A stretch of 64,000 nt of DNA, taken from a virus. Lineage: Duplodnaviria; Heunggongvirae; Uroviricota; Caudoviricetes. The position numbers were made by a program, and so were the translations under genes. Positions 1,447 through 60,738 of the stretch are shown piece after piece; the first letter of the stretch is position 1; every line of letters begins with the position of its first letter. The stretch lies in IMG/VR virus record IMGVR_UViG_2645727901_000008; one strand, written 5' to 3'. Under the pieces are notes generated by a model, which did not search any database, was not told where the DNA came from, and saw only the letters and a program-made list of their open reading frames with translations.

Positions 1447-1461
1447 GCAGTTTGTGATTTC
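1447..1461 (-). promoter_or_regulatory. candidate late-promoter element GGAAATCACAAACTG (copy 1) followed by CATAAT
   Basis: The 15-mer is identical to the copy at about 60724-60738 and one mismatch from the copy at about 55021-55038; each is followed within 3 nt by a -10-like hexamer. Confidence 0.35.
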
Positions 1462-1571
1462 CAAAATAGTGTCAACCACTTTTTGTGGATTTTATTTTTT
1501 GACCGAAATTTGGCCTAAATCATGTTGATGTAGTTAATTGTTTTTATAACATAAAACTTCATTTTGTTTAC

Positions 1572-2195
1572 ATGAAGGATGGTGTAGTGAAGTTAAGGGT
1601 TTTAGGGGCCGCGCTCGCGGCTATGTTGGGATGCGTATCTGCTAATACTGCCAATGCAACTGCGTTACCTGCACAATTCAGGGCAGGGCAGCAGGTTATG
1701 AATAATGCTGGTGGGGATCATTCACAAGCGGCCATTATGGACTTTTGCAAGAGGGAGGGCATTCCATTACGGCCTGTTGGAACTCAGTTTATTGGTAAAA
1801 CTGACTTTTGCGTTTTTGCATATACAGCATATCTGACGGACAAAGCTATAACAAAAACAGGTTATTCAACCAAAGATACTCTTTCCAGATTAAGTCAGGG
1901 ATGGCAGCAATTCGAAGTGTATCGCCAGCAAGGATTAGGTGAGTTATTGCAACCACTTTTTATGCTTGCGTTGGTGCCCGAGGGGCAGCAATTTTTGGTT
2001 AAAAAGGGAATGCTTCGCCAAAGTGATATTGCCGGGTTCGATAGCATGATGGCTTATGAGCGCAAACTAACCGAGCAGCGAAATAAAAAACCATCTGCTT
2101 CATGTGTGCAAAGTAAAACAGCAGAATACAGTGCAGTAGCCGGGCCTTTAGCCAAACAAATGGCAGAGCAATGGTGTAAAAAATACGGGCAATAA
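1572..2195 (+). CDS. secreted protein or lipoprotein, unknown function
   Basis: N-terminal signal peptide with MLGC lipobox-like motif (LGAALAAMLGCVSANTANA); RBS-like AGGATGG upstream. Confidence 0.6.
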   Translation: MKDGVVKLRVLGAALAAMLGCVSANTANATALPAQFRAGQQVMNNAGGDHSQAAIMDFCKREGIPLRPVGTQFIGKTDFCVFAYTAYLTDKAITKTGYSTKDTLSRLSQGWQQFEVYRQQGLGELLQPLFMLALVPEGQQFLVKKGMLRQSDIAGFDSMMAYERKLTEQRNKKPSASCVQSKTAEYSAVAGPLAKQMAEQWCKKYGQ

Positions 2196-2215
2196 GTTAC
2201 GCAGCGGAGGCAGAA

Positions 2216-2608
2216 TTGAAAAGATTGACTATTGCTTTACTGGCGTCTTTCCCTTTGATCGCGAGCGCCGGAAATTTACAAGTTAAGTGCGGTCGGTTTG
2301 ATATAAAAATCTATCCAGATGCCATATTTCTGAATGGGAATAAGGTTGATAACGTACACCGAAAAACTAAATCTGACGTAATGAGCTATGTGTTCCAGGA
2401 GTATGCGGAGATGGGGGGAACTTACACGCTGTACTCGCTGGATGTTCCTTCTCGCGGTGATATGACATTATCCCATCAATGGCAGAACGCCGATGGCGAA
2501 GCTCTGCGCGAAGTTAAAACAGAAAAATGCGGCACTTTCCATTCTTTTAAAGGGAAAGTGCCAAATGTTAAATCTGTGCTTGAAAAACAGCGCGCAGGTG
2601 ATTTTTAA
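2216..2608 (+). CDS. secreted protein, unknown function
   Basis: Signal peptide MKRLTIALLASFPLIASA; GGAGG RBS 7 nt upstream; 20 nt after the previous gene. Confidence 0.65.
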   Translation: MKRLTIALLASFPLIASAGNLQVKCGRFDIKIYPDAIFLNGNKVDNVHRKTKSDVMSYVFQEYAEMGGTYTLYSLDVPSRGDMTLSHQWQNADGEALREVKTEKCGTFHSFKGKVPNVKSVLEKQRAGDF

Positions 2609-2629
2609 ACTGCGTTAGCACTTTGAACA

Positions 2630-2680
2630 TGGCGACAACACATCTTGGTGGCTGCGTTGTCGCTGTATGTTTTTATAATA
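2630..2680 (+). terminator. terminator-like hairpin after the two secreted-protein genes
   Basis: GCGACAAC...GTTGTCGC stem followed by TGTATGTTTTTATAAT. Confidence 0.4.
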
Positions 2681-2696
2681 TAAAGCATTAAAGTTT

Positions 2697-4384: not shown

Positions 4385-4689
4385 TAAATGTACTCTAATA
4401 CATTCCGGGCCATTACGGGTTCTAACATATCTTCGCTAGTTACTTTGGTTAGCACCTGGGCGAGCGCCTTAGTGTGGCGTATCTCTACCGCGAGCGAGAT
4501 GGACTCTCTGTGAGAAGGAATCTGTAATTGATCACCTTTATCTACACTTAAGTTTGAGGCTTCTCTGATCACCTCATAAACCCGTAACTTTAACTGCTGT
4601 GACACTTCTTGTTGAGATGCTATAAGCTGAAGTACAGTCTTGATCAACTTCAAAGAATCAGAAGCTTGCTGAGGAACCGCATAGAGCAT
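4384..4689 (-). CDS. small helical protein of unknown function (gene A, first in operon)
   Basis: 101 aa; strong AAGGAGG RBS 5 nt before the ATG; stop overlaps the start of gene B. Confidence 0.7.
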   Translation of the reverse strand: MLYAVPQQASDSLKLIKTVLQLIASQQEVSQQLKLRVYEVIREASNLSVDKGDQLQIPSHRESISLAVEIRHTKALAQVLTKVTSEDMLEPVMARNVLEYI

Positions 4690-4824
4690 AACCCCTCCTT
4701 TCCCTTATCTATAACCGCTTTCTTTTTTCTGTGTATGTTAAAAGTAGAAGCGGTTTTTACCTTTTGTAATATATATAGTGTCTAAAACTAACTTTGGCAC
4801 TATATATGGCATGATATCTATGTT

Positions 4825-6503: not shown

Positions 6504-6700
6504 ATTGGCAGCCTCCTTTGACTAAGTTAAGGAGCTACCGCGTGAGGTTCCAATCTCAATGGCGGTAGCACTGACTGGGTTGGAACTACCGGCGTCAAAG
6601 GGAACCGGCCTGCCTTTCGGCAGCCCAGCCAGCACTACCATTGATCTCTGAGCTAAACGCTACGTATGGCTGTGCGATGGCATGACACAAAAAAAGACGC
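6504..6700 (-). ncRNA. candidate c4-like antisense/leader RNA region upstream of icd-like gene (copy 1)
   Basis: Minus-strand RNA contains CCCUUUGAC (about 6594-6602) complementary to GUCAAAGGAGG covering the icd-like SD (about 6512-6522); also a UAGCUCAG tRNA-like stretch. Confidence 0.3.
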
Positions 6701-6754
6701 TTTCGGCGTCTGTGTCGCCTTTGACATTATCCGGGGTTCCAATCCCGGCACCCG

Positions 6755-6777
6755 TTTTTCTAAGGTGCCGTAGAAAT
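6755..6777. promoter_or_regulatory. TTTCTA-N8-TAGAAA palindromic operator-like element upstream of immI-like copy 1
   Basis: cgTTTTTCTAAggtgccgTAGAAATAtacc; a related inverted arrangement sits upstream of copy 2 at about 44770-44800. Confidence 0.35.
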
Positions 6778-7302: not shown

Positions 7303-7320
7303 AATGTTAGAAAACTAATT
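7303..7320 (+). promoter_or_regulatory. operator-like motif copy (AATGTTAGAAAACTAATT)
   Basis: Member of the dispersed TGTTAGAAA(A/T)(C/T)TAATTT family; abuts the stop of 7315..7893. Confidence 0.4.
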
Positions 7321-23653: not shown

Positions 23654-24691
23654 ATGAGTAAGAAGTCGATCGAGAAAGAGTACAAACGGTTCCTGCAAAC
23701 CGCTGAACGGTGGAAAGAGCTGGTGGTCGCAAACTCTGTTTTCCATGATACCAGTTATGCCGGCGAGGAATTCCGCCACGTTGCACTAACACATGATCAG
23801 AATGTACTAGAAGAAGCTGAAAAGTGCCTCACAGAATGGAAAGCCTTTGTTGACTTGTGCCGTAACGCTGACGGCAAAGCGTCCAACATTGTTGAGTCTG
23901 TATATTCTCCGATCCCATTCATTATTGAGGACACAAATCAAAGCACGCATATTGTTGTGCAAAGCGCGACCACCACCCGCTCATTTACGCGCGAAAATCT
24001 GCTCAAAAAATATGATGCAATTATAAAGAAAAGCCTGAAAAACAAGATATTTTCGCAGATTGTTGGTGCACTTGAAGAAGAGCGCCGTTTTTTCGCATCA
24101 GAACCTGAAGGGGAAGTTTACCGGGCGCGCAAAGATGGATACACAGATGTAGTGCTTACAACAAACATTGAAGGCAGCAATGCTCTGTCACGATTCAGGG
24201 TAGGCGCACACGGAGCCTTAGTGTTCGCAAAACTTCCGAACACCACAGTGCCCGTTGTTAATAATGTCGGCGAACGTCGCAGCATTACTATTTATTCTGG
24301 GGTTGAGTCGATACCTTGCGGCCTGCTTGGTGACTTTAGCCTCTATCGCGTTCGCGATCTGGAGAAACACCAACCAAGCTATGTTGCGAAGTCATATATC
24401 TTGCGAAACATCGACATCCGCAATGAGAGCTTAAAGAACAAATCAGCCAAAATGCTTGAGGAAGCCGATCCGGCTATTCGCCATATCATTGAGCGTAAAA
24501 TACAGACAGCACGCGAAGCGATGGCGAGACTGAATAAAATGGATCTGGAGTTGTTAGACGTAATGATGACATCCGGAGATGACCTGACAGGCATAAAACT
24601 GACAGACGCGCGGAAAAGATACGGTAAAACCATAGAAGAACGTTACGGGTTCACTTTCTCCCAAACACAGCACGCCGCTAAACTCTGGTAA
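23654..24691 (+). CDS. hypothetical protein at the c1-equivalent position between the recombinase and pac genes (candidate regulator)
   Basis: 345-aa ORF divergent from the recombinase; operator-like motif just upstream; no recognisable similarity to P1 C1 by eye. Confidence 0.55.
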   Translation: MSKKSIEKEYKRFLQTAERWKELVVANSVFHDTSYAGEEFRHVALTHDQNVLEEAEKCLTEWKAFVDLCRNADGKASNIVESVYSPIPFIIEDTNQSTHIVVQSATTTRSFTRENLLKKYDAIIKKSLKNKIFSQIVGALEEERRFFASEPEGEVYRARKDGYTDVVLTTNIEGSNALSRFRVGAHGALVFAKLPNTTVPVVNNVGERRSITIYSGVESIPCGLLGDFSLYRVRDLEKHQPSYVAKSYILRNIDIRNESLKNKSAKMLEEADPAIRHIIERKIQTAREAMARLNKMDLELLDVMMTSGDDLTGIKLTDARKRYGKTIEERYGFTFSQTQHAAKLW

Positions 24692-24716: not shown

Positions 24717-26225
24717 TTATATATCCAGATCTGGCATTTCCACATCTGCAAGAACCTGATCGCGGAAGGTAGCCATTTCAGCGCCGATATCTTCATTAGC
24801 AGGAACATAGTCCACCAGCATTGTAAAGCAGTAGGTATCCCATCGGTCAGGTGATTTGATGTTCAGCTTTTGCCGCATGTGCTCCTTGCGCATCATCGCC
24901 ATCTTCCCTTCTTCATTAAGTAAAAAGGGGATTTTTGACGCTTGCTCTGCCGTTTTAGGGTCACTGTCTATTCGCATACGACCTGACTTTATGGCATCAC
25001 GAGCCATAATATTTGCGTAGGCACGTTGGTTAACAAAACGCTCCTTGTCTTTGTTCGAAAACATGGGTTTCCCCCACCGAATACGTACCGGATTAGCCCC
25101 ACGGCGCACCAGCTGCGCACAGGTATCTGAACCAAAACCGTCTGCGTCAACCGCGATTGTAATATTCGGGTATTTATCCGGCGTGCATTCGTTGTATATA
25201 AAGTCAGCAAAAGCCAGCGGGTCCATAGTCCCTGGCATTTCCATTATCTTAAAGTTAACAACGCGCCGCTTATTCCTGTGACCTGACACCTTGCAGATGT
25301 TAAGGACCGACTTGTCTCGCCCGTTCCCAACGTCAGCTGTCGCTACCCACCCCCAATTTTTCTCCAACAACACCTTGCGCCGCGCAGCGCGATCGCATTC
25401 ATCACGACCAAGCAAATAGCCGTTAATCTCCCGAGGGAACTGACCAAGCACCTTAACCATATACTCAATAGAATCGCGCCCGCCATATTCCAGGAGTTTC
25501 TGCCTGATGAATTGTGGTGTGACGAACGGTGATTCTTCTGAGTTAAGAACAATTGCTGTCCAGATCCCTTTCGGGTTGTCTGGGGTTTTAGCTTGAGAAT
25601 GGTGCGAATCGTAGAAATAACCACTTGGCCTTGTTGGCTGGGATAGCATCAACATTCGGTTATCTTCTTCAGTAAGAGCACCGGTCATTACGCCGATCGC
25701 CTTATCAGATATACCAGATGCTTCATCCAGAATTAGAAGCAAATGTGCCGCGTGTTCCCCCGCCAGCGCTTCTTCGTTGCCGAGTCGATAACCTTTGCAG
25801 AGAACTTCCCAAATCCCCTTACGGGAGCGCTCATAAAACATGGTGTCAGAGAGGACAAAATAGGTCTGCAACCACCCATGACGCTTAACTGCATTCGCCC
25901 AATACTGTTTAACGTATTTGAATACGCCTGTTTTTACCTGGCCTATCTTGTTAGCAACAATGATGACACGGGCATCGGGGAACAGGATCATAAAAATCAA
26001 CAGCAACATCGCGGTAAGGGACGACTTCCCCGTTCCGTGTCCGGACGTGACGGTAGTCCTACTCCCCGTTTCCTGCACTGACTGAATGATCTGCTGCTGC
26101 TGGTGGGAGGGGAACATCCCAAAAATATCGACAACAGCCTGGGTAAAGTTGTAGCGGTATTTGATTACCATATCGCGCCAGCGTGGATCGCTGGTGACGC
26201 ATTTAATCTTGCGCCCGCCAGCCAT
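24717..26225 (-). CDS. pacB: terminase large subunit (PacB-like)
   Basis: 502 aa; Walker A-like SGHGTGKSS; LILDEAS Walker B-like; position and size match P1 pacB. Confidence 0.75.
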   Translation of the reverse strand: MAGGRKIKCVTSDPRWRDMVIKYRYNFTQAVVDIFGMFPSHQQQQIIQSVQETGSRTTVTSGHGTGKSSLTAMLLLIFMILFPDARVIIVANKIGQVKTGVFKYVKQYWANAVKRHGWLQTYFVLSDTMFYERSRKGIWEVLCKGYRLGNEEALAGEHAAHLLLILDEASGISDKAIGVMTGALTEEDNRMLMLSQPTRPSGYFYDSHHSQAKTPDNPKGIWTAIVLNSEESPFVTPQFIRQKLLEYGGRDSIEYMVKVLGQFPREINGYLLGRDECDRAARRKVLLEKNWGWVATADVGNGRDKSVLNICKVSGHRNKRRVVNFKIMEMPGTMDPLAFADFIYNECTPDKYPNITIAVDADGFGSDTCAQLVRRGANPVRIRWGKPMFSNKDKERFVNQRAYANIMARDAIKSGRMRIDSDPKTAEQASKIPFLLNEEGKMAMMRKEHMRQKLNIKSPDRWDTYCFTMLVDYVPANEDIGAEMATFRDQVLADVEMPDLDI

Positions 26226-27589
26226 TAATCATCCTCCGGCGGTTCTATCGCGATATCATCATCTCCGGCGTCATACCCTGCATCAGATACATCATAATCA
26301 CCGTAAATTTCAGCCGTTGCCGAAGGGTCAATATCCAGCTCTTCGTCGTTGGCCTCGAATTCTCCAGCTTTACGCTCGCCATTGCGGTCGTAATCTCCGC
26401 ACCCCAATTCTTCAACAATGGTTGCCACATCCGCCCGGCGCTCTGCCAGCCATTGCGGATGGTTAGCCTGAAGCGTTGCAAACTCCCTTGCCTCTTTGTC
26501 CAGCTGTTCATCATCAACATCATTGACGTCAGAAACAGGTGGTTCGAGAAGAGTGATAGCTTTCGCCGCGCGCGCCGCGAGGATAGCCGGGACGCTGACC
26601 CCCTGGCGCTCGATGTATTCAGCAACACCGATATCATCCAGTTCCTCGCGCTCACGCATACGTATAGCGGCGGCGATAACTCTGGCTGCGCGTGCGTCAG
26701 CGCCAATGCGATATTCAATCTCTTTGCCACGCTGTTCGGCCTGTAGGCGTGCTAATTCGAGTTTTTCTCTGGCCTCAGCCTCTTTGAATGCTTGCTGGCG
26801 AGCGCTCTGACGAAGCTTTTCATCCCCCTGTCGCAGCTTTTGTTCGGACTGATATATAGCTGCCAACCTACTGATAAAATCATTCATGTAGTAGGCCGCG
26901 TCACTGATTAGACCGAGAAGACGCTGCCCAGGGTGCATTCCTTCTGGCTCTTTATCGCCCAAGGCGTCTATTTCCGCCTGTAGGCGTTCGGCCTCCTGAT
27001 CAACAATGCTTTGATACTGAAGTGCGCGCTCTTGCGCCATTTGAATTGCTAACCGCAGGTGTTCTTCTGCGCCGTTCTTCATCATATCGCGAGCCACATT
27101 CGTAGTGGGCAATGTGGCACGCTGCACAGCACCGTCAGGGATCATTGCAGAAGATCCCTCAATTTTTGGGGCGCTTTTATCTTCTTCGGGGATCATTTTC
27201 GCCATTTTTTCGCGCAATGATCTCCTGACAGATTCTTTTATCTCATTGTTATTATTTGCATTATTTTCATGATCCGAAGTTTTCTTTCTCGGCATACTTC
27301 GGAAAGAACCTGCGCCCTGCGAATTGTCAATTTCTGTAAATTTTGTTTTTTCTGCACCCTCTTCCAGCTTTTTTGTTGCTCTTCCCGCCCGTTTTTTTTC
27401 AGGTGATTTGGTGCTTTTTTTTGTTGTCTTTACCTGCGACCGCACCTCATTTTTTTTCATATTGAGATGCTTTCTGGCTGTATTGAAGCTAAGGCCATGC
27501 TCCTCACAGTATTCCTTTACAGTGATCCCTTTTTCTTCACGCAACGCTATAAAGCGGGCGCGGTGCTCCTCCCAATTAACCAGACTCAT
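26225..27589 (-). CDS. pacA: terminase small subunit (PacA-like) containing a candidate pac site
   Basis: 454 aa, highly charged; translationally coupled to the large subunit; cluster of 4 GATC within about 27140-27273. Confidence 0.65.
   Translation of the reverse strand: MSLVNWEEHRARFIALREEKGITVKEYCEEHGLSFNTARKHLNMKKNEVRSQVKTTKKSTKSPEKKRAGRATKKLEEGAEKTKFTEIDNSQGAGSFRSMPRKKTSDHENNANNNNEIKESVRRSLREKMAKMIPEEDKSAPKIEGSSAMIPDGAVQRATLPTTNVARDMMKNGAEEHLRLAIQMAQERALQYQSIVDQEAERLQAEIDALGDKEPEGMHPGQRLLGLISDAAYYMNDFISRLAAIYQSEQKLRQGDEKLRQSARQQAFKEAEAREKLELARLQAEQRGKEIEYRIGADARAARVIAAAIRMREREELDDIGVAEYIERQGVSVPAILAARAAKAITLLEPPVSDVNDVDDEQLDKEAREFATLQANHPQWLAERRADVATIVEELGCGDYDRNGERKAGEFEANDEELDIDPSATAEIYGDYDVSDAGYDAGDDDIAIEPPEDD
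27140..27273. other. candidate pac (packaging) site: GATC cluster inside the pacA-like gene
   Basis: Four GATC sites in about 130 bp (GGATCAT, AGATCC, GGATCAT, TGATCC). Confidence 0.3.
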
Positions 27590-27978
27590 AAAGCAACACC
27601 ACGCTTTTTAACGGCGGCATTCCACAGCTTATTCGCCATGTCCACCAGCTCTCGTTGCTCTTTTCGCGCCTGTTCGACTGATTTCCTGCTACAGTTTTTA
27701 ACCAGTAAGCTACCGTATTCAGGCGTGCGCCCGCGCACCTTGAACTGATATCCGTTCAGACCATGTAGCCAATATTTTCGTGGATACACACGATCATCCA
27801 GCTCACAGATTGCCCTGCTTGAACGAACAAAATGACGAATGATGTTAGTTACACTTACTCGTGAAACATGGAGATGAGGGTATTTTTCTTTGGCGAGAGT
27901 GGTAATTTCAGTGACTGTCAGATAGCAGTCAGCCCTGATCATGATATCCGCAATTTCTGCGCTGCTGATTTGTTCCAT
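27586..27978 (-). CDS. small regulatory-type protein upstream of the pac genes (Lpa-like position)
   Basis: 130 aa; first gene of the pac operon; weak operator-like motif at about 28056-28075. Confidence 0.5.
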   Translation of the reverse strand: MEQISSAEIADIMIRADCYLTVTEITTLAKEKYPHLHVSRVSVTNIIRHFVRSSRAICELDDRVYPRKYWLHGLNGYQFKVRGRTPEYGSLLVKNCSRKSVEQARKEQRELVDMANKLWNAAVKKRGVAL

Positions 27979-29508: not shown

Positions 29509-29584
29509 TGGTGGCCCCTACCGGACTTGAACCGGTGACCGTGCGATTATGAGTCGCCAGCTCTAACCACTGAGCTAAAGGGCC
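29509..29584 (-). tRNA. tRNA with CAU anticodon (Ile2/lysidine-type, or Met)
   Basis: 76 nt with encoded CCA; sequence is very close to E. coli tRNA-Ile2 (ileX) as recalled. Confidence 0.85.
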
Positions 29585-29594
29585 AATTAGTGTT

Positions 29595-29708
29595 TTATTT
29601 TCGACGCCTGAGATTCTTCGCGACTTGTTCTACGCCGTATACGATCACAAGTAGAAACAGCAAAAACCATCCAGGGTTCTTATCGATATACGTCCAAAAA
29701 TCCATCAT
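29595..29708 (-). CDS. micro membrane protein (37 aa)
   Basis: MMDFWTYIDKNPGWFLLFLLVIVYGVEQVAKNLRRRK; start overlaps upstream stop (ATGA); below track cutoff. Confidence 0.3.
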   Translation of the reverse strand: MMDFWTYIDKNPGWFLLFLLVIVYGVEQVAKNLRRRK

Positions 29709-29869
29709 GAGTTCCTGAACGCACCTTCAATAATCGGCAATAGCAATACCACAGCTACTGAAACTAATGCCCCATCAGCCAACACCGACATCACTTTGCT
29801 GGTGAAATCCACCAGTACGGACAAAACGAGAAAGCCAATGGCGCCCGCAATACGCGCCTTGCCAATCAT
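29705..29869 (-). CDS. small membrane protein (54 aa)
   Basis: MIGKARIAGAIGFLVLSVLVDF...; start overlaps the TerB-like stop (TAATG). Confidence 0.35.
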   Translation of the reverse strand: MIGKARIAGAIGFLVLSVLVDFTSKVMSVLADGALVSVAVVLLLPIIEGAFRNS

Positions 29870-30324
29870 TACAGATAATCTTCCACACGAAGGCCAAGAC
29901 GGCGACCAACCTCTTCCAGAACCTTATGCTCCGCAGGTTCGATTTCACCATCTGCTTCAGCGATCGTGAGCATGTTCACGAAGACTTCTTCCGCTTCTTT
30001 GGGATCGTTTTTGATATCTTCAATTTCGCGGAGGATATTCATGCGACCAACACGGAAACCAGCTTCCAGTTGCTCAGTAAAACGGGTGATTGTTGCGGTA
30101 ATTTCGTTGCCAAAATGACTTAAGCGAGGATTAGAGCGGACAAGCTGATCAAGTTTCGCTGTTTCTTCCTTTTCGATTTCACCATCTGCGGCAGACACCA
30201 GCAAACAGCCACCGATGATGGCCTCCATCAGATCGCGATTCTCAACCCTTTTCAGCTCTACTTTTGCTGAAGCGACTTTCTTACCGAAAAATTTACCGAA
30301 CATTGGTTTTCCCTCAATAAACAT
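29869..30324 (-). CDS. TerB-like protein (tellurite-resistance TerB fold)
   Basis: Two AADGEIE/AEADGEIE repeats typical of TerB-like domains. Confidence 0.65.
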   Translation of the reverse strand: MFIEGKPMFGKFFGKKVASAKVELKRVENRDLMEAIIGGCLLVSAADGEIEKEETAKLDQLVRSNPRLSHFGNEITATITRFTEQLEAGFRVGRMNILREIEDIKNDPKEAEEVFVNMLTIAEADGEIEPAEHKVLEEVGRRLGLRVEDYL

Positions 30325-30570
30325 GACGTATTTATTAGGTTGCGGTGCCTGGTGCCTCCAGGTGACGTTAACCAGTTAACAATTAACGCCGGGATTTTTG
30401 TCTTCACAATTAAGGAGGATTGTTTTAACTGTTCCGCGTGCGCTTAGCCGCATTCACCGCAATGGTAAGAGCACTTGGCTGGCTGGGCGGCGATGACGCC
30501 TGTACGCATTTGGTGAACCGGTTCTGCTTCCGGCATTCGCTTAATTAGCCAAATACTCTTAACGTTGCAC

Positions 30571-30657
30571 TGGCGGAGAGTAATGGAATCGAACCATCAT
30601 CGCTTGCGCAATGGGACGGTTTTCAAGACCGCTTGAGCACCATGCTCCCTACTCTCC
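30571..30657 (-). tRNA. class II tRNA, anticodon UGA (Ser-like), atypical short D-arm
   Basis: Perfect 7-bp acceptor stem plus CCA; anticodon loop CUUGAAA; long variable arm; T-loop TTCGATT. Confidence 0.55.
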
Positions 30658-30794
30658 CGTTATTGTGGCGACCGGTGCTGATCTCCGGCTTGCGGTTATT
30701 TCAGACTCTCACGGGCGTTTAATTGCCCCGCCGAACAGCTCTTTTCCGCAATAGCTGCAATGTCTTTCGCGCATCAGCCTGCGCATTCACCACA

Positions 30795-30878
30795 ATGTTG
30801 AGAACACTGGTTGTCACGCTGCAACGCAACATTTATTCGTAGATTGGGATATGACCCCGTTACGCCAGTGTTCTCAAC
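30795..30878. repeat. 13-bp perfect inverted repeat pair (TTGAGAACACTGG / CCAGTGTTCTCAA) with about 58-nt spacer
   Basis: Lies between tRNA genes in noncoding sequence. Confidence 0.4.
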
Positions 30879-31028
30879 GTTGTAGTGCCGGTTACGGTTC
30901 CGGCCAGGCCTCTTCCTCAACGGGTTGTTCTCCATACGGACTACCGTTTATTGGTCGTTCCTGCGGTTTATGTTGTGAAGCCAGATGCTTATCTTCTGGT
31001 TGCTTCAAAGAGCTGCACTTCATCACAA

Positions 31029-31100
31029 CGGTAAGGGTACTTCGTAGGGATTCGAACCCTCTGCCAAGCACGGCGATCTCCGACGTCGCAAAATACCCTT
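31029..31100 (-). other. tRNA-like structured element or tRNA remnant
   Basis: Contains a GGTTCGAATCC T-arm-like segment enclosed by a perfect 10-bp inverted repeat (GGTAAGGGTA / TACCCTTACC); no canonical D-arm. Confidence 0.25.
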
Positions 31101-31111
31101 ACCTGTTGCGT

Positions 31112-31187
31112 TGGTGCCGATTAACGGGATCGAACCGCTGACCATTCGCTTACAAAGCGACTGCTCTACCAACTGAGCTAAACCGGC
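31112..31187 (-). tRNA. tRNA-Thr (anticodon UGU)
   Basis: 76 nt; canonical cloverleaf; anticodon loop TTTGTAA; T-loop GGTTCGATCC; CCA encoded. Confidence 0.85.
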
Positions 31188-31191
31188 AATT

Positions 31192-31278
31192 TGGTGGGGA
31201 GTGATGGAGTCGAACCACCCGAGTCGCAATGACAGTAGATTTACAGTCTACCCCGCTACCCCTACGGACTAACTCCCC
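31192..31278 (-). tRNA. tRNA-Tyr (anticodon GUA), class II
   Basis: 87 nt; acceptor GGGGAGT/ACTCCCC; anticodon loop CTGTAAA; long variable arm. Confidence 0.8.
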
Positions 31279-31283
31279 TAAAG

Positions 31284-31360
31284 TGGCGATGGTGGGTGGA
31301 TTCGAACCACCGACCGACAGCTTAGAAGGCTGCTGCTCTATCCTACTGAGCTACACCATC
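31284..31360 (-). tRNA. tRNA-Arg (anticodon UCU)
   Basis: 77 nt; anticodon loop CTTCTAA; T-loop GGTTCGAATCC; CCA encoded. Confidence 0.8.
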
Positions 31361-34900: not shown

Positions 34901-35067
34901 CTGAATTCATGAACACGATAATAACAAGAGCGTTAGTTTTATCAAACCGAGGGGAATACTACTGAAGAGATAGGCGGATGCAACAGGTCGGACTTGTTTT
35001 TAGAGTAAATGGTGATGCGGGTCAACAAGCCGGGTAAATTGTATGTCATTTACCCAACTTGTTATTT

Positions 35068-42641: not shown

Positions 42642-42792
42642 AGGATTTCCCCCTCTAAACCGTAAAAAATTCCGCTATGCGGTACGGTTGAGAGGGTATG
42701 GAGAATGTTATTTTCAGGGGGACGATACTACCGTCAAAATCACATACTCCCCATAGTTTGCCTACTTATTAACCCATGACCGGGAGAAAAAT

Positions 42793-43278
42793 ATGGCAAA
42801 CATTGAACCTCGCTGGCTAATTGAAGCCCGTAAGCACATTGGCCTGACTGAAATAAAAGGCGCTAAACACAACCCTGAAATCGTTCAGTTCTGGCGCGAC
42901 ATCAAGCGCGGCGGAATTAAAGACGATGAAACGCCGTGGTGCGCAGCATTTGTCGGTGCAATGCTGGAACGTGTAGGCATCCGCTCAACAAGATTTGAGT
43001 CGGCAAAATCCTATCTGGATTGGGGCGAGAAATTAGATACACCGGCATACGGATGTATCGTTGTATTTACCCGCGTAGGCGGTGGGCACGTAGGCTTCGT
43101 TGTCGGACGCCGTGCCAATGGCGATCTGCTTGTCCTGGGTGGGAACCAGGGGGATGCTGTTAATATTCGCGCATTCCCAACATCAAGAGTGTCTGGCTAT
43201 CGCTGGCCTGCTGGCGAACCACGCAATACCGCTCTGTTACCAGTCGGAGACGCAGCAACCTCAACTAATGAGGCATGA
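42793..43278 (+). CDS. cell-wall hydrolase-like protein (CHAP / NlpC-P60-like, TIGR02594-type)
   Basis: Cys...His pattern (ETPWCAAFVGA ... GGGHVGFVV); GGAG-type RBS. Confidence 0.55.
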   Translation: MANIEPRWLIEARKHIGLTEIKGAKHNPEIVQFWRDIKRGGIKDDETPWCAAFVGAMLERVGIRSTRFESAKSYLDWGEKLDTPAYGCIVVFTRVGGGHVGFVVGRRANGDLLVLGGNQGDAVNIRAFPTSRVSGYRWPAGEPRNTALLPVGDAATSTNEA

Positions 43279-44439: not shown

Positions 44440-44570
44440 AGTTACGGCCTCACTAACAGGTTTAACAACCTGCTACCCGCTGCTAAACAGGTGGCAGGAC
44501 GTGACGGGGTTAGCAGACTGGCGTTAGTGAAACCAGCAGGCCGAAGCCTCCCCATCACGCCCCACCATAA
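44440..44570 (-). ncRNA. candidate c4-like antisense/leader RNA region (copy 2)
   Basis: Minus-strand RNA has UUCACUAAC (about 44523-44531) complementary to GUUAGUGAGG spanning the icd-like SD (about 44448-44457), and CUGCUAACC pairing with GUUUAGCAG. Confidence 0.3.
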
Positions 44571-44785
44571 TTTGGGCGTAACGCGGTTTTACGGACACAA
44601 AAATACCGCAATATCGGATATCTGCGGTTGTCCGCACTAACATTCAGGCTGCTAAACCCGGTCGCAGAATTTGCTACGACGACATGAATATAAGCCTGAA
44701 AACATGGAAGATCAACTAAAAATTTCAGCAATAGATGACTTCAGTCGATGATGCAGATCATACATTCCGATTTAGAAACGGCAAA

Positions 44786-47028: not shown

Positions 47029-48711
47029 TTAATTGCTCATCACAAATTTTGCAAAGTTTATTAACTGTTCTGGCGTCCAGTTTTCCGGATCGTCACCGGA
47101 CGACAACGGCGCGGATTCGTACATACCATGCTCGTTGTTTTGCTCTGATTCATTCGCCTTAAACTCTTTGATCATGGTGTTGAGAGTGTCATCGTCGATG
47201 TGCAACTGCTCAGTGAACAGATAACGCATAAACGCGTCGCTACCAGCCAGTTTCGGGTTGTTCTGGATCTGGTCCATAATTTGGGAGATGACAGCAACAA
47301 AGTTGGCGCGTGCATCCAGTTCTCGGTTTTCCTCTTCCTGGATAGCAGTGTTCATTGAGTTGAATTGCACGTCATAAGGGCGGTTTGTTTCGGTGTAAAC
47401 CTTGCCGTATTTATAAGCGAGGTGAATGTCCAGAAGCCGATAAATAGTTCGCTGGGCGGCCTGTCTGATCCAGTTCGCACGCAATGCAGCCTGGATAGCA
47501 GTTTGCTGCCAGCCGCCTTCTCCAAGCCCTCCGCTCATCTGATCAGCCCAGCCAAGCATTGTTGCGTCAATGCCGAGGCTTGCAGCAAGCTGCCGGAGGT
47601 GAAACATAACGTCTTCGATACCACTGATATCTGCGGGTATGGATTGCGTATCAATGGTGATGCCGTTCTTCCCGTCTCCCATAACAGGTATCAGATGGTT
47701 AAGCACAGTCGGAATAGCGTTGGCATTAATCGACCTTTGCGCCACCAGGTCACTATGACGCTTCAATGCCTGGCTGACGCCACGCGTATAGTTCGCCGCA
47801 TTAACCGGGTCCAGTGTGTTCGTCGTAAGAGCAATCAGGCGGTCAATTTTGGCTGCATTATTTCGCGTTGATTTCAGCGCGGCGAGCGAAGCACATAAAT
47901 TAAGGTAAGGTTCATAGCTGTATTCCAGGAATGAAGTTCCGTAATTCTGCGTCTCCATTAACGGCTTATCAGCCTGATCACTTAACAGTGAATACCCTTT
48001 TGTACCGTAGCTAACCGGAATAACCTTATGCTGCGGCGTCCAATACGGGTTTTTCATGGAAACAAGATTCCACGGTTCGGTTATTACCCTGCGCAAACTA
48101 TGCGTATCCAGAATGTAATCACCACTAAAACCGACCAGCTGGCTACCGCGATAAAATTCCTGGACGAAGTGTGGAAGAGTGTAATAACTGGATTCAATGC
48201 CAGTTATCCCTCTGCCCTGTTCAGCATAAGGTCGGACATAAGACACCCCAAAGATCGCCATAATCATGGCCCATGAAGGAAGTCCGTCATTAATCATTGC
48301 CCCCAAATCAGCTGTTAACTCTTCACACCTACTTACCGCCTCGGCATCGGAACCATCTTTTGGCGAAAGCATGAATGCCAGCCCGGTTTTCTTTGAAGGC
48401 GCAAGCGCATGTGCAATATGAATGTTTAAAGCCGTTGAGATAGTCGGGCTTTTAGCCATCGTTTCCAGGATGTTGTACTTTTGCAGGCGCTCGCCGGGCA
48501 GTTCAGCGGATAAAGAAATTGAATCTGCTGCACTCGTCATGCCATCGCTGTTGCTACCCAGGATGCCTGGACGTAAAGCGGACAGGCCGGAACGAGCAAC
48601 GACACTATGCCCGCTCGTAAAAACGACCGGATCGGCGGGCGTAACATCACCACCGTTGAAGGCTTTCTTCAATGCCGACAGAAAGCCTTTGTTTTTGTCT
48701 TTCGTTGCCAT
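47029..48711 (-). CDS. large virion protein, putative portal
   Basis: 560 aa; first gene of a head operon; function inferred from size and position. Confidence 0.5.
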   Translation of the reverse strand: MATKDKNKGFLSALKKAFNGGDVTPADPVVFTSGHSVVARSGLSALRPGILGSNSDGMTSAADSISLSAELPGERLQKYNILETMAKSPTISTALNIHIAHALAPSKKTGLAFMLSPKDGSDAEAVSRCEELTADLGAMINDGLPSWAMIMAIFGVSYVRPYAEQGRGITGIESSYYTLPHFVQEFYRGSQLVGFSGDYILDTHSLRRVITEPWNLVSMKNPYWTPQHKVIPVSYGTKGYSLLSDQADKPLMETQNYGTSFLEYSYEPYLNLCASLAALKSTRNNAAKIDRLIALTTNTLDPVNAANYTRGVSQALKRHSDLVAQRSINANAIPTVLNHLIPVMGDGKNGITIDTQSIPADISGIEDVMFHLRQLAASLGIDATMLGWADQMSGGLGEGGWQQTAIQAALRANWIRQAAQRTIYRLLDIHLAYKYGKVYTETNRPYDVQFNSMNTAIQEEENRELDARANFVAVISQIMDQIQNNPKLAGSDAFMRYLFTEQLHIDDDTLNTMIKEFKANESEQNNEHGMYESAPLSSGDDPENWTPEQLINFAKFVMSN

Positions 48712-48795
48712 GAATCACCGCGAATTGTTTCCAGTTTCGCGGCAGCATAATCAGTATGTGATTTGATAGGAGAGTTTTATTGGTGCTGTTAATGA

Positions 48796-49855: not shown

Positions 49856-51232
49856 TTACCCAACAGAGGTTGACTCAAACATAGAAAAAATTAACCCTTT
49901 ACCTTCGCCAAACTCAGTCTCAATTTCATCAGAAACGGCAGATAAAATGCTACGCAGATCGACATCTCCGCCGCCGAACATATCGCCTAACGCTTGTTGT
50001 TGGTGAATAAGTTCATCGTTAATTTTTTGCGCCAGTTTCTTGAAAGCGGCCCCCATTCGCTTAGCGCTTCGGTTGTTGGCAACAATAAACAGAGCAAGCG
50101 CTTCTGCTTCCGGAGTGCTATCTCCAAACAATCCACGCTGTGCGATCACCTCTTCTACTGCCTGACCGTTATCTTTTGCTTCACGAACAAGGTTAATTGC
50201 TTCCTGGAGTGCTGCTATCGCCTGTGTATCCAGGCCATTAACCTGCTCTATACCGTCCACTAAGCCTGTTACTGCGTCATGGTGAGCGTCGCCAGACAGC
50301 GACTGCATTTGCGCAAAATCGCTGGCTGCCGTATTTAATGCGGTCAGGATATTACGCATTTCCGGATCTGGCTCTTCCGACACTAGCCGAACAAGCCTTT
50401 CATCCTTGTACGCTTTGGCAAAAATTGCATTCTGGATGCGATCGATAAGCTGTTTCGTGGGACGCCCATCGGCAGTAAGCAAGCCTGCCGTCGCTGTATC
50501 GCCAATTTCGCGCAAAAACGCACGAATAAACGCATCATTGGACCGCGCCAGCAGATTTCCATCATCTGAAGGATTAAATAGCGCCATGACGCTCTCAGTG
50601 AGAAATTGCGCATCCGCATACGCTTTTTCACTTGCTGCCATCTCTTGCAGATCGCTAATGTTTGAATCGCGGGCAAATTGAGCGCGGTCTACATCTGTGA
50701 GTCTTTCTCGCACTAGTACGGGCATAGACATTTGCGAAATTTCGTCAGGATTCAGACCAAACTCTTTCGCATGGTCGATCAGGTACTGGCGATACTCATC
50801 CGCCTGTCCTTGCTCATAGGCACGCCAGATACCCATACTCCTTCCGTTGCCGGATTCAACAACGTTGTCCGGACCAACTATCGGCGCTCCGTGGCTGCTC
50901 ATACCGGAATCCGTTAATTGTGCCGGGCGTAAATTGGAGGCAATACGGTTAACCTGGAGTTTGCTGGATAGCCGGGTACGATCTCGTGGTTGGAGTTCTT
51001 CCGGGAAGGCCGGGTTAATCATACCGTCAAGGTTGTTCGAAATGATCAGACTGCTGGCATCAACGACCTTAAAAGCCGTCTTTACCTCTGCACCTTTGCT
51101 GGTGACTACGTAGCTACTTCGCCCCAGGCGTGTTTCTTTCCTCTCTAATGAAGAAACCAGAGCAATGACGCTGTTAATATCTGCGGCCTCGGAAAGCGCA
51201 GAAGTAACTGATTTGTTCAAAATACACTCCAA
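49856..51232 (-). CDS. hypothetical virion-associated protein (Dar-operon-like region)
   Basis: 458 aa; start uncertain; no motif recognised. Confidence 0.55.
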   Translation of the reverse strand: MECILNKSVTSALSEAADINSVIALVSSLERKETRLGRSSYVVTSKGAEVKTAFKVVDASSLIISNNLDGMINPAFPEELQPRDRTRLSSKLQVNRIASNLRPAQLTDSGMSSHGAPIVGPDNVVESGNGRSMGIWRAYEQGQADEYRQYLIDHAKEFGLNPDEISQMSMPVLVRERLTDVDRAQFARDSNISDLQEMAASEKAYADAQFLTESVMALFNPSDDGNLLARSNDAFIRAFLREIGDTATAGLLTADGRPTKQLIDRIQNAIFAKAYKDERLVRLVSEEPDPEMRNILTALNTAASDFAQMQSLSGDAHHDAVTGLVDGIEQVNGLDTQAIAALQEAINLVREAKDNGQAVEEVIAQRGLFGDSTPEAEALALFIVANNRSAKRMGAAFKKLAQKINDELIHQQQALGDMFGGGDVDLRSILSAVSDEIETEFGEGKGLIFSMFESTSVG

Positions 51233-51288
51233 CTATAGAGAAAGCTGTGAGTGTAAAAAGAGTGTGATTTATGTGAGAACAGAGAAGT

Positions 51289-54236: not shown

Positions 54237-54657
54237 GCTTTTCGATCGTAAACTGGCGCTCTATGCAGTCATTGATAGGGAAAATGCGATAAAGCGGATT
54301 CAGTCGACAGTTACCGTTAGTCAATGTGACTTTCAGATCCCACTTCGTTGGCTCAAGATATTTCGTATCGATGAGCAAATACTCTTCTCTCTCACCGCGT
54401 TTTGAGGCGTCAACTGGTCGCGTTTTCCCTGAAATAACCACAGATGGATTTTTCAGGTCTTGCAACCAATATTCGATTTGAGCATTGCTGACCCAGCTTC
54501 GCTTAACACGTAGCGAAACAGGAAATGCTATAGCGGATTCTTTCACTACAGCGTCACCAATACTCAAAATCTCAACACTCTTGCGACGAAAAATGAAACG
54601 GTCAATGATGGCAACAAATGCCATGATAAAAATGAAATAATTTCCAAAGTTACCCAT
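54211..54657 (-). CDS. membrane protein, possible antiholin/lysis regulator (LydB-like position)
   Basis: 148 aa; N-terminal TM helix YFIFIMAFVAIIDRFIF. Confidence 0.5.
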   Translation of the reverse strand: MGNFGNYFIFIMAFVAIIDRFIFRRKSVEILSIGDAVVKESAIAFPVSLRVKRSWVSNAQIEYWLQDLKNPSVVISGKTRPVDASKRGEREEYLLIDTKYLEPTKWDLKVTLTNGNCRLNPLYRIFPINDCIERQFTIEKREGDWDVK

Positions 54658-54983
54658 TATTTCTCTCCACCTTTTCCCCCATTCGCTATTACGCTTAAGA
54701 GATTCAAGACGTTACTAGCTCTGGACTTCAAGCCCTGTAAAATTTCACTACCGTTGTTACTGGCAATCAGAACAACGCAGAAAATGATACCTTCAGGCCA
54801 TTCTTGGCTAACCGCCACCCCATACCCCGCAAGCCCGGCTGTTACCGCAGTAAACAATTCACTCGCAAGATTGAGCAGGGACGCAGAAATGCGCCCGTCT
54901 CTAACTCCGAGAAGGAATACGCCGGTTCCACTTAGTAGGGATGTTATGACTACTACAGCCAGATTTTCATAATCTGCAAACAT
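54657..54983 (-). CDS. holin-like small membrane protein (LydA-like position)
   Basis: 108 aa with two or three hydrophobic helices; first gene of the operon; preceded by a late-promoter-like element. Confidence 0.5.
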   Translation of the reverse strand: MFADYENLAVVVITSLLSGTGVFLLGVRDGRISASLLNLASELFTAVTAGLAGYGVAVSQEWPEGIIFCVVLIASNNGSEILQGLKSRASNVLNLLSVIANGGKGGEK

Positions 54984-55020
54984 ACCCCTCCAGAAATAAC
55001 ATCTAATGCGCCACTAACTT

Positions 55021-55038
55021 AGTCAGTTTGTTATTTCC
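55021..55038 (-). promoter_or_regulatory. candidate late-promoter element (GGAAATAACAAACTG, one mismatch to the 15-mer)
   Basis: About 40 nt upstream of the holin-like start. Confidence 0.3.
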
Positions 55039-56761: not shown

Positions 56762-56762
56762 G

Positions 56763-57290: not shown

Positions 57291-57318
57291 AAATTAAGGC
57301 CCGATATCGGGCCTTGTC

Positions 57319-57852: not shown

Positions 57853-57854
57853 AA

Positions 57855-60239
57855 TTAAATGCTCCCCGCGTTATACCACGTCCCATTAATACAATACTGA
57901 ATTGGCCTTGCCTGTGTTGTATCAATTAATTCATCACGGTTTCCATTAACTGAACCCGTAACGACATAACCTGACCTGTCAGACCAGCCGGGACCATTCC
58001 ATGTCTGAACAGATGACAGACCGCCCAGGCGAATACCTGTAATAAACCTTGAGTTACATTCTGCCTGTGTATATGCACCAACATCCCCCGCAGAGGGTTT
58101 GCGGGTTGTGGTGTAAAACTCTGACCAGTTAGCTTCAAAGCCATAACCATCACGCGCTGAACGATAAAAGATACCGCCGTTCTTATAATTCACGCGGAAC
58201 TGTACAGCAGGGCAACTCCCCGCATTCATATTAAAGTGGAGGATTAATGTCGATGCACCACTGATATCTGCATCATAAACGCCGCTATTCCAGTTCCAGC
58301 CAACAGCTTTATCATGTGCAACCCTGCTTCCTGTTTGCCCTAAAGCAAATGCAGGCTGCTGGTTTTTCGTATTGTAGTCTCTTCGCCAGCCAGGAGCATA
58401 AGCATCACCATGATTAATATAAGTGAATTGAGCGTTAGTGATTCCGCCGCCGCTGGACGTACTCGGAGTAGTAACGCGTATGGTCATTGCGCCGCGAGTG
58501 CCAATAACTTCCACCACAGCACCTGCAAGACAAATATTTCCGCAACCTGTATCTGTAATGACCTTATTATTTGCATAAGCCCATGAGCCTTTGCACATCC
58601 AGTAAGGATGGTTAAATGCCCCCTGACTCTCCAGCCACGAAATAAATTGCGCAGTTGTCCAGATCTGACTATCGCCACCAATATCCACCCATGCGCTATA
58701 TGCGCGGCAGGCACCAATATTTTTGGTGAAGGTATCTTTTCCCGGAATATCTGCGCCGTTCTGGTTTTTCTGTAATGCTCCTGCGGCTAATTCTACGGTT
58801 TGTTCAAGATTTAAATCTTCCGCCGTTAGCTCAATGTTTTTAGAACCATCAAATCCCACCCCGTTGATTGTTCGAGCTGTTTTCAATTTCGTCGCGGTGT
58901 CGGCGTTCCCTGTCAGCGCCCCGGTGATCCCGCCGTTGAAAGTCTGGCGCGCACTCCATGTGTTAGCCGTACTCAACAGGGGGATCTTTTCACCGCTGGT
59001 ACCGAGTTCTCTTAAACCAAGGTATTGGATAACGGCCAGTGTGCTTGTTTTAGCCAGAATATCGCGACCGACTGACGTTAAATCAGTCTGCGCTACCGTA
59101 TCCTTATCAATGAAATAAGGCAGTTTGTTTGCACCAGTCGCAAGACCAGCAAGCGCGGTTAAAGTTGCATCCAGAGGCTGTTTGCCTGCCAGCGCATTTG
59201 TCATTGTTGTCGCAAAGTTCGGGTCATTGCCCAGTGCTGCTGCAAGCTCATTCAGGGTATCAAGAGCTTCAGGTGATGAGCCGATCAATGCAGAGATAGC
59301 AGCTCTTACATAAGCGGTCGTAGCAATCTGCGTGTTATTCGTACCCTGTGCAGCGGTAGGCGCAGTAGGTATTCCCGTTAATGCAGGGCTTGCTAAAGGC
59401 GCTTTGAGAGCCAGGGCATTGTTGATAGTTGTGCTGAAATTCGGGTCGTTATTGATCGCAGCCGCTATTTCTTTCAGCGTGTCCATCGTTCCCGGAGCAC
59501 CATTGATAAGCGCATTTATAGCAGCATAGACAAAGGCCGCATTTGCGATCTGTGTGTTGTTTGTACCGGGTTCAGGTGTTGGCGAAGTCGGCGTACCTGA
59601 CAGATGCGGACTATCGAGCGGAGCTTTTGTATCAACCAAATCATGGAGAGTTTTGACAGCCAGAGGTGTAGCCGCTTTTCTTTCTTCTGTACTGCTTATT
59701 TCATTAGAGAATTCGACACCAACAGCACGGTTAACTCGGTATTTAAGCACAATCATTTCTTTAGTCACAGCCGTTGCGCCGCTAGGCACGATAACTCGAC
59801 ATAATTCAATTTGATTCTGCCCAATAGTATTGTCCGTACGCACGTAAATTCTTGCAGCGCTGACAGAAGATGCGCTATCTACCTGTGTCGTTTTTACACC
59901 ATGTTCAAAATTGGCTTCCAGCACAATAATGTTGGTAGCCCCAGCCTTTACCGAGACAGTCACATCTTCTATTTGCTGAACGGATATCTGAACATTATTT
60001 ACATCTACTGAAGCAGCCCCTTTACCTTCTGAGTTTTCAGAAGTTATACGGACGCTCAACCCTGTGCCGGGAACTGGTTCAAATCCACAGTAAAAGCCAG
60101 GCAAAACAATATTTTTAAGTTTTCTGTTAAGAGCCGAACTACTATAGAGTTCGAAATATTGAACATCAGCAAGCAACGGCTGTGAGACACCAGAGGATAG
60201 TGTCATTATGTTGTTCGTTTTATCAGCCCCCATAATCAA
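57855..60239 (-). CDS. tail fibre protein (constant N-terminal part outside, variable C-terminal part inside the invertible segment)
   Basis: 794 aa; Ala/Thr-rich repeats (NTQIANAAFVYAAINALI / NTQIATTAYVRAAISALI) typical of myovirus fibres; crosses the right inverted repeat. Confidence 0.85.
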   Translation of the reverse strand: MIMGADKTNNIMTLSSGVSQPLLADVQYFELYSSSALNRKLKNIVLPGFYCGFEPVPGTGLSVRITSENSEGKGAASVDVNNVQISVQQIEDVTVSVKAGATNIIVLEANFEHGVKTTQVDSASSVSAARIYVRTDNTIGQNQIELCRVIVPSGATAVTKEMIVLKYRVNRAVGVEFSNEISSTEERKAATPLAVKTLHDLVDTKAPLDSPHLSGTPTSPTPEPGTNNTQIANAAFVYAAINALINGAPGTMDTLKEIAAAINNDPNFSTTINNALALKAPLASPALTGIPTAPTAAQGTNNTQIATTAYVRAAISALIGSSPEALDTLNELAAALGNDPNFATTMTNALAGKQPLDATLTALAGLATGANKLPYFIDKDTVAQTDLTSVGRDILAKTSTLAVIQYLGLRELGTSGEKIPLLSTANTWSARQTFNGGITGALTGNADTATKLKTARTINGVGFDGSKNIELTAEDLNLEQTVELAAGALQKNQNGADIPGKDTFTKNIGACRAYSAWVDIGGDSQIWTTAQFISWLESQGAFNHPYWMCKGSWAYANNKVITDTGCGNICLAGAVVEVIGTRGAMTIRVTTPSTSSGGGITNAQFTYINHGDAYAPGWRRDYNTKNQQPAFALGQTGSRVAHDKAVGWNWNSGVYDADISGASTLILHFNMNAGSCPAVQFRVNYKNGGIFYRSARDGYGFEANWSEFYTTTRKPSAGDVGAYTQAECNSRFITGIRLGGLSSVQTWNGPGWSDRSGYVVTGSVNGNRDELIDTTQARPIQYCINGTWYNAGSI
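59000..59027. other. cix/gix-type inversion crossover site (right)
   Basis: ttctctTAAACCAAGGTattggataa, mirror of the left site. Confidence 0.55.
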
Positions 60240-60682
60240 CCCTCAACTTGCTCGATTGTCATGAGAATACTGTAACGTTTACCTTTATAGAGGGTATCTT
60301 GCTGGGTGCAAAGCACACCAAAAGCCTGTTCCTCAGCATCAACAAGCACAAGCGTGTTAAAGTCGTAAGGCGTGTTATCCGGCATTCTTTCTTGAGGGAA
60401 GGCTGCATTGATAGTGATAATCCCATCCACACTGGACAATATCAGATCGGACACTGCAAACTGTTGAGCATCACTCAATTTAAAATCGAGTGGAATGTCA
60501 GCTATATTCCAGCCTCCTGCACCATTAGCAGTTACCAGACTAGATTTGCACCAATACGCCTTAGAGATAACAAAACGCGCACCTTTGCCGATCGCCGACT
60601 CAGCGCGGCGTGAATAATAGTAGGAAAGCAATTGCGCCTTATACAGGCGGTTACCATCTCTTGCCTTTAAATTTTCAGCCAT
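60236..60682 (-). CDS. tail protein upstream of the fibre gene
   Basis: 148 aa; stop overlaps the fibre start; late-promoter-like 15-mer about 45 nt upstream. Confidence 0.55.
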   Translation of the reverse strand: MAENLKARDGNRLYKAQLLSYYYSRRAESAIGKGARFVISKAYWCKSSLVTANGAGGWNIADIPLDFKLSDAQQFAVSDLILSSVDGIITINAAFPQERMPDNTPYDFNTLVLVDAEEQAFGVLCTQQDTLYKGKRYSILMTIEQVEG

Positions 60683-60723
60683 ACGAACATAGCCCCTTCA
60701 TAAGCAATGAACCAAAGGAGAGT

Positions 60724-60738
60724 ATGCTCAGTTTGTGA
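60724..60738 (-). promoter_or_regulatory. candidate late-promoter element GGAAATCACAAACTG (copy 2) followed by CATACT
   Basis: Identical 15-mer to the copy at 1447-1461; adjacent 10-bp GC hairpin (TTCTTCCCCC/GGGGGAAGAA) at about 60738-60765. Confidence 0.35.

Follow-up and report, generated by a model that had tools for sequence, protein, structure and literature searches.

The stretch of DNA analysed here (64,000 nucleotides, IMG/VR record IMGVR_UViG_2645727901_000008, referred to as the window) carries a short conserved element upstream of its structural and lysis operons. On the basis of sequence and of analogy with phage P1, we consider with good confidence that the copies of this element are activator-dependent late promoters of a D6-like phage-plasmid of the P1 family. 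In P1, the late genes require the protein Lpa (PMC8198154), which acts together with the host SspA bound to RNA polymerase (PMC1891329), and its 11 late promoters contain a 9-bp inverted repeat to which Lpa binds (PMC10695390). The sequence comparison supports the view that the element described here is the D6-lineage counterpart of these promoters, a variant of a known system and not a wholly new one; it is classed as such because the layout resembles that of P1, but the P1 box is lacking. As found with megablast, the window belongs to the phage D6 group of P1-family phage-plasmids, with 96–98% identity to MF356679 in long patches; positions 1 to ~20500 correspond to D6 70661–91159, and the remainder to D6 1 to ~43500. 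The gene names are those of the D6 annotation, in which each gene carries the name of its P1 counterpart.

The most conspicuous form of the element is the 15-mer GGAAATCACAAACTG, identical copies of which, as reported in the initial annotation, lie ahead of the tail gene starting at 60682 and of the gene at 650..1303. They occupy positions 60729–60743(-) and 1448–1462(-), with 0 copies expected from 100 shuffles. The one-mismatch copy placed ahead of the holin-like gene starting at 54983 is GGAAATAACAAACTG, at 55024–55038(-), and a copy with three mismatches is located at 48752–48766(-). The AAATCACA cores said to precede the portal-like gene and the gene at 49856..51232 are also present, at 48757–48764(-) and 51263–51270(-), a few bases away from where they had been placed. 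The originally described hexamers CATAAT, CATACT or TAAGTT lie exactly 2 nt beyond the 15-mer copies; the same hexamer spacing is found at the portal site and at the 51263 site, where the hexamers are TATGCT and TACACT instead. All of the sites listed initially are real, but the list was incomplete, with copies at 353–373(-), 42693–42713(-), and 42737–42757(+) having been missed.

Taken alone, the 8-mer AAATCACA shows no significant enrichment (7 copies against 3.4 expected). The composite pattern AAATMACA-N3-T-N3-BANNNT, derived from the sites themselves, occurs seven times in the window, with 0.11 occurrences expected. A looser pattern, AWWTMACA-N7-BANNNT, permits A or T at core positions 2 and 3, admits ATTTCACA and gains the site at 353–373(-); the motif search proposed at the outset, run with this pattern, gave 8 matches against 1.05 expected, all eight upstream of late-type genes. 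Because the search patterns were shaped on the window sites, the 27 kb of D6 outside the window served as a hold-out, in which there are 4 matches against 0.05 expected; all four precede late operons, namely those of pmgB/sit, gene 23 (capsid), upfC, and gene 7. In the matrix built on these 12 sites (8 in the window and 4 further ones in D6), core positions 1–8 have, as counts of 12, A12, A11, A11, T12, C9/A3, A12, C12, and A12, and the four positions after the core are a, a, C10, and T12. A spacer of three variable nucleotides follows, and then a hexamer with (T/C/G), A12, t, a, n, and T12. The refined element is AAAT(C/A)ACA-nnCT-N3 followed by the -10 hexamer, with the 12-nt box AAATCACAaaCT positioned 3 nt before the hexamer. 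The matrix thus indicates that the functional unit comprises AAATCACAaaCT, 3 nt, and the -10 hexamer; the 15-mer that was first taken as the unit is a genuine shared sequence, but merely the best-matching version of this arrangement.

The hexamer resembles a sigma-70 -10 region (TAnnnT-like): its second base is A and its sixth T in all 12 D6-type sites, as well as in all 10 orthologs on the complete plasmid NZ_JBRBPZ010000006 of Escherichia coli CH468. A -35 region is absent: the best match to TTGACA at a spacing of 16–19 nt has 1–4 of 6 positions, equal to that at random positions, in agreement with the original description of the class as lacking a -35. If transcription starts ~7 nt beyond the hexamer, the box would extend from about -27 to -16 and be centred near -22. 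No promoter features are present in the GenBank/RefSeq records of D6-like phage-plasmids, including the record of D6 itself.

All eight window sites lie between genes and have the orientation of the gene that follows; seven of them are 29–51 nt from its start codon, and the mat site is 136 nt away. The candidate promoter of the gene 26 homolog (353..373(-), ATTTCACA ccctgca TACAGT) precedes an ATG at 321 and is the positional analog of P1 LP26, with AAATCACAgaccactGACAAT as its CH468 ortholog. The candidate mat promoter (1440..1462(-), GGAAATCACAAACTG ca CATAAT), the analog of LPmat, precedes mat (650..1303(-), ATG at 1303) and has orthologs in CP085065, in the CH468 plasmid, and in the Pantoea plasmid described below. 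The darB candidate (42693..42713(-), AAATAACA ttctcca TACCCT, darB start at 42641, CH468 ortholog AAATAACAcactcaaTACCCT) and that of the gene for a lysozyme-like peptidoglycan hydrolase (42737..42757(+), AAATCACA tactccc CATAGT, ATG at 42793, CH468 ortholog AAATCACAacctcggCAACAT), a functional analog of P1 LPlyz, are divergent. They are formed by two separate boxes in opposite orientations, 23 bp apart (42693–42757), an arrangement that fits an asymmetric box. The candidate for prt, the portal gene (47029..48711(-), ATG at 48711), is found at 48744..48766(-) (AAATCACA tactgat TATGCT); it is the analog of LPpro, and its CH468 ortholog is AAATCACAgactaacTACGAT. Upstream of the ddrB-like gene (49856..51220(-), TTG at 51220) lies the candidate at 51250..51270(-) (AAATCACA ctctttt TACACT), for which locus L025 has the ortholog AAATCACAcacttttTACACT within diverged flanks. 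The operon of the holin gene lydA (54657..54983(-), ATG at 54983) is preceded by the candidate at 55016..55038(-) (GGAAATAACAAACTG ac TAAGTT), the analog of LPdar, with orthologs in L025, the CH468 plasmid, and Pantoea. Finally, R (60236..60682(-), ATG at 60682), the first gene of the R-S-U tail-fibre operon, is preceded by the candidate at 60721..60743(-) (GGAAATCACAAACTG ag CATACT), the analog of LPs, which is invariant in 21 IMG/VR loci with diverging flanks. The R site lies directly 3' of a terminator hairpin, and a hairpin upstream of R is common to P1 as well.

One further site, upstream of the pmgM-like gene (35047..35067(-), AAATAACA agttggg TAAATG), is doubtful. Its hexamer does not end in T and lies inside a hairpin, and the site is not conserved in the CH468 plasmid; it was therefore downgraded and is probably not functional as a late promoter. 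In the surrounding segment (35030–35067(-)), the AAATAACA core comes right after the stop codon of the orf13 homolog, and an 8-bp hairpin (GGGTAAAT...ATTTACCC) that encloses TAAATG follows.

The element is conserved among relatives of the window to a much greater extent than the DNA around it. In 16 D6-like IMG/VR loci found with gpR, the R promoter is unchanged, and the loop of the adjacent terminator is variable. The promoter is also unchanged (GGAAATCACAAACTGaaCATACT) in an IMG/VR group in which R is 81% and Lpa 82% identical and the upstream flank is unrelated; the pmgB, lydA, and ddrB sites are likewise kept in this group. The CH468 plasmid, with an Lpa that is 60% identical, carries the element at ten positions orthologous to sites of the window and D6. 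Over these 10 orthologous promoter pairs, the 8-nt core averages 86% identity, the CT of the spacer ~100%, and the hexamer 75%, against 28% for the 30 nt upstream and 35% for the 30 nt downstream, so that at the sequence level the comparison is a clean phylogenetic footprint with randomised flanks. In the more distant Pantoea plasmid pPSP-26e (Lpa 40% identical), the sequence cgcAAATTACAaaCyGCtTAnnnT is located before pro, the lysozyme gene, lydA, R, the capsid gene, the mat leader, and others; its box is AAATTACA, and the architecture is the same. In turn, P1-like loci carry ACAAGTNACTT-N4-TACAAT, and a further subgroup carries ACAACGNACTT-N4-TAnAAT. A variant of the box, ACAACG(G/C)ACTT-tcca-TA(G/A)AAT, is present upstream of the R homolog in loci L036–L039 and L044 of IMG/VR, a P1-like subgroup for which the cognate Lpa was not recovered.

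The product of the open reading frame (ORF) 27586..27978(-), named at the outset as the candidate activator, proved to be a full-length member of the Lpa family. It is 100% identical to D6 gp4 (D6_4), labelled in D6 as 'late gene transcriptional activator, similar to P1 lpa', and 27–31% identical to P1 Lpa. The Pfam profile PF25716 (BPP1_LPA, 'late promoter-activating protein') matches at window positions 27589–27978(-) with 192.3 bits (cut-off 35), E=5e-57, over profile positions 1–130 of 131, and PHROG 1704 matches at E=2.8e-60. The order lpa-pacA-pacB beside c1 is the same as in P1, with 27586..27978, 26225..27589, 24717..26225, and c1 at 23654..24691 corresponding to D6_4, D6_3, D6_2, and D6_1, respectively. 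We therefore presume, by analogy, that this ORF encodes the late promoter activator. An AlphaFold2 model based on 11 homologs (mean pLDDT 84.7) contains helices 6–16, 22–32, and 40–52, strands 56–61 and 68–74, and a C-terminal helix 98–129, and the protein is accordingly predicted to consist of an N-terminal winged helix (H-H-H-beta-beta) and a long C-terminal helix. A Foldseek comparison with the PDB returned winged-helix regulators (Fur, PadR/LmrR, MecI, forkhead) with weak E-values of 0.01–0.1. The predicted recognition helix has the sequence (T/N/A)NI(I/L)R in all lineages with the D6-type (AAAT-ACA) box and YLRLK in P1. The type of the recognition helix tracks the type of the box across four lineages, indicating that box and Lpa change together.

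The region between the mat promoter and the mat start codon is unusual. The element is positioned upstream of 650..1303, as first stated, but not directly before mat, since a conserved leader and a terminator intervene. Window positions 1330–1433(-), between the promoter at 1440–1462 and the ATG at 1303, form a structured leader or small RNA of ~100 nt, ending in a strong intrinsic terminator (stem 1355–1337 followed by T7). In CP085065 and in the CH468 and Pantoea plasmids, this leader has diverged less than the sequence around it; one compensatory change and two that are one-sided are seen in its outer stem. The leader has no match among Rfam families, and P1, in which LPmat is ~20 nt from mat, has no counterpart. 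Identity with isrK was considered and rejected, as the match is a sub-threshold one to the terminator (14.7 bits, gathering score 50). The promoter at 1440–1462 may thus drive a conserved structured RNA of ~100 nt rather than mat directly.

The window also contains a candidate promoter of the P1 type, and P1-like phages contain one of the D6 type. At 436–454(+) of the window, gacAAGTGACTT tcat TAATCT matches the P1-type late promoter perfectly, and neither the window nor D6 has a second one. It lies upstream of ORF 515..649(+), which encodes a hydrophobic protein of 44 amino acids (phrog_38362) and is convergent with mat; no homology of this protein to PmgL was found. In plasmid pEC361_3, the homology to the window starts exactly at the 436–454 box and the upstream context differs, and this promoter is absent from the CH468 and Pantoea plasmids. 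Conversely, an unannotated D6-type promoter (GGAAATCACAAAGTAcaTACCGT or cagAAATAACAatctgaaTAGGTT) is located ~35–40 nt upstream of the holin-like gene lydC in P1 and P1-like phages (L002 11572–11592, which corresponds to P1 AF234172 31571–31591, (-); L034 9642–9662; L042 16132–16152; L060 17162–17182). Its pattern is kept in three diverged variants, and a normal P1-type LPdar is present downstream, before lydA. There is an outside chance that phage-plasmids of the two types possess mutually orthogonal Lpa/box pairs, each keeping one 'foreign' late promoter before a gene for a small membrane protein. Were these foreign promoters functional, they could allow a resident prophage to detect the late activator made by a phage of the other type, whether superinfecting or co-resident; its response might be, for instance, premature lysis or exclusion.

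The activator-dependent late promoter class put forward in the initial annotation is supported in silico by its placement before late genes, by the -10 without a -35, and by the Lpa-family ORF. Several points nevertheless weigh against it. Both composite patterns, the strict and the loose one, were partly defined post hoc, and several of the hexamers (TACCCT, TAAGTT, GAAAAT) are weak. The mode of binding of Lpa cannot simply be transferred from P1, since the box is asymmetric and the P1 site is a 9-bp inverted repeat. The strong terminator before mat means that the direct product there may be a short RNA. Finally, the lydC site, found in phages that possess a P1-type Lpa, implies either a reader other than a D6-type Lpa or cross-talk. 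This last point leads to a different assignment of the reader, according to which the elements do act as late promoters, with the box recognised by another factor (another phage protein such as Mat, a host factor, or SspA-RNA polymerase itself) and Lpa acting elsewhere or indirectly. Conservation of the D6-type box and hexamer before lydC, in phages that have P1-type boxes at R and lydA, would be explained in this way, and Mat homologs are present in both lineages (33% identical). However, with their flanks randomised, the D6 late promoters offer Lpa no other conserved element as a binding site, the box is placed at -22 just as the Lpa-binding box is in P1, and the type of box follows that of the recognition helix in the four lineages mentioned above. 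For Mat, neither a DNA-binding domain nor a Pfam match was detected, and the protein was set aside as an alternative regulator for lack of domain evidence. We regard such a change of reader as unlikely.

Much less probable still is the assignment of the motif as an operator of the prophage repressor (of the asymmetric C1 type) or of another repressor. In its favour, the C1 operators of P1 likewise lack symmetry, occur scattered, and overlap with promoters, among them the mat and gene 26 promoters. However, the P1 C1-type 17-bp operator ATTGCTCTAATAAATTT has no matches with up to 3 mismatches, and a different 17-nt asymmetric motif, aTGTTAGAAAAcTAAttt, present 11 times in the window beside genes of the early/immunity type, fits the operator role. 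This motif, (a/t)TGTTAGAAA(a/t)(c/t)TAAttt, is found at 7305, 7963, 11299, 22226, 23626, 32434, 32590, 33841, 34884, 44791, and 45990; it adjoins ref, the pdcB-like gene (pdcB), cre, c1, pmgR/pmgS, and the repL region, and is likely to be the D6-type C1 repressor operator. The AAATCACA box, in contrast, is located solely before structural and lysis operons, at a fixed spacing to a -10 that lacks a -35, where repression would be unneeded. With P1-type operators absent and the separate motif available for that role, the operator assignment was rejected. It is hardly credible that the shared 15-mer arose by chance, is left over from a DNA duplication, or is a host site of the IHF type (WATCAANNNNTTR) with no promoter role: the bare core is indeed not enriched and the box loosely resembles the IHF core (2 mismatches), but the composite pattern shows strong enrichment and is confined to promoter-proximal positions, the flanks of the sites share no similarity and thus exclude duplication, the invariant positions (AAAT...ACA...T) are unlike those of IHF, with the Pantoea variant still further from it, and conservation at orthologous positions persists despite the randomised flanks.

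If the elements are indeed late promoters activated by the Lpa homolog, derepression of the prophage would lead to early expression of ORF 27586..27978, whose product would bind the box through its predicted winged-helix domain. Together with the host SspA, it would then recruit sigma-70 RNA polymerase to promoters on which this enzyme is unable to act by itself, and the operons for lysis, head, tail, and anti-restriction functions would be switched on. By analogy with P1, we infer the binding of Lpa to the box, the dependence on SspA, the start sites, and the timing. Our literature search, which left the D6 genome paper uncovered, found no open-access paper linking D6 with late promoters or Lpa. 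Definition of the box would provide a map of late transcription for the D6-like group, the members of which are common: plasmids carrying the mat-upstream region alone occur in 101 of the 5426 complete E. coli genomes. It would also add a second, clearly different DNA specificity to the Lpa family, helpful in the study of polymerase recruitment by Lpa and SspA without a -35, and would offer a candidate activator/promoter pair, orthogonal to that of P1, for synthetic circuits. Additionally, it permits testing whether co-resident P1-type and D6-type prophages are insulated or sense each other's late switch.

Other features of the window include Rfam gathering-threshold matches at 6558–6645(-), 6690–6768(-), 44487–44572(-), 44641–44693(-), and 29512–31360(-), which comprise two C4 antisense RNA genes and four tRNA genes. 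An isrK-like element is present upstream of one of the C4 genes and a c4-a1b1 target element upstream of the other, implying two immI-like modules. The commonest 9-mers of the window, CCACCAGCA (n=17) and GCTGGTGGA (n=14), contain the E. coli Chi octamer GCTGGTGG.

Late promoters with a poor -35 that are switched on by a phage activator are found in other systems. The late promoters of phage Mu (Plys, PI, PP, Pmom) are sigma-70 promoters with a usable -10 and are activated by the protein C, a small phage DNA-binding activator that has its site just upstream of, or overlapping, the -35 region, and binds as a dimer to a dyad-symmetric site at ~ -30 to -55. The likeness to the D6-type promoters lies in the switch and in the -10 with a poor -35; the differences lie in the dyad site and in the activator family. 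Mu C is not known to be related in sequence to Lpa, and SspA is not known to take part in Mu. In phages P2 and P4, the late operons are each preceded by a conserved activator site and have no good -35, and their activators, Ogr and delta, are zinc-finger proteins that contact the alpha subunit of RNA polymerase and recognise a dyad near -55. The position of the activator, the symmetry of its site, and the protein family all differ from the D6 type.

The closest system is that of P1. In the annotation of AF234172, late promoters precede mat, prt, lyz, lydA, R, pmgC-sit, 23, 26, pmgL, and hot, and consist of a '-22 region' of 9 bp, 4 nt, and a -10, from which the form aAC-AAGTNACTT-N4-TAnAAT was extracted. 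The genes of LP26, LPmat, LPlyz, LPpro, LPdar, and LPs are also served by six of the eight window sites (those of 26, mat, the lysozyme-like gene, prt, lydA, and R), and of the four D6 sites beyond the window, the ones before pmgB/sit and gene 23 correspond to LPsit and LP23, giving 8 of 12 in total. Both systems are characterized by a -10 hexamer without a -35, by a conserved box near -22, and by an Lpa-family gene beside pacA-pacB. The boxes themselves, however, are different. P1 has a 9-bp inverted repeat, AAGTNACTT, separated from the hexamer by 4 nt, whereas the D6-type box is the asymmetric 12-mer AAATCACAaaCT, separated from it by 3 nt. None of the eight window sites contains AAGTNACTT, and no sequence kinship of the two boxes could be recognised when 12-mers were aligned by eye in several registers (at most 4 of 12 matches, no better than chance). 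In P1, LP26 and LPpmgL share one palindromic box, whereas the D6-type divergent promoters have two. A corresponding divergence is seen in the two Lpa proteins, which are 27–31% identical and differ in the recognition helix.

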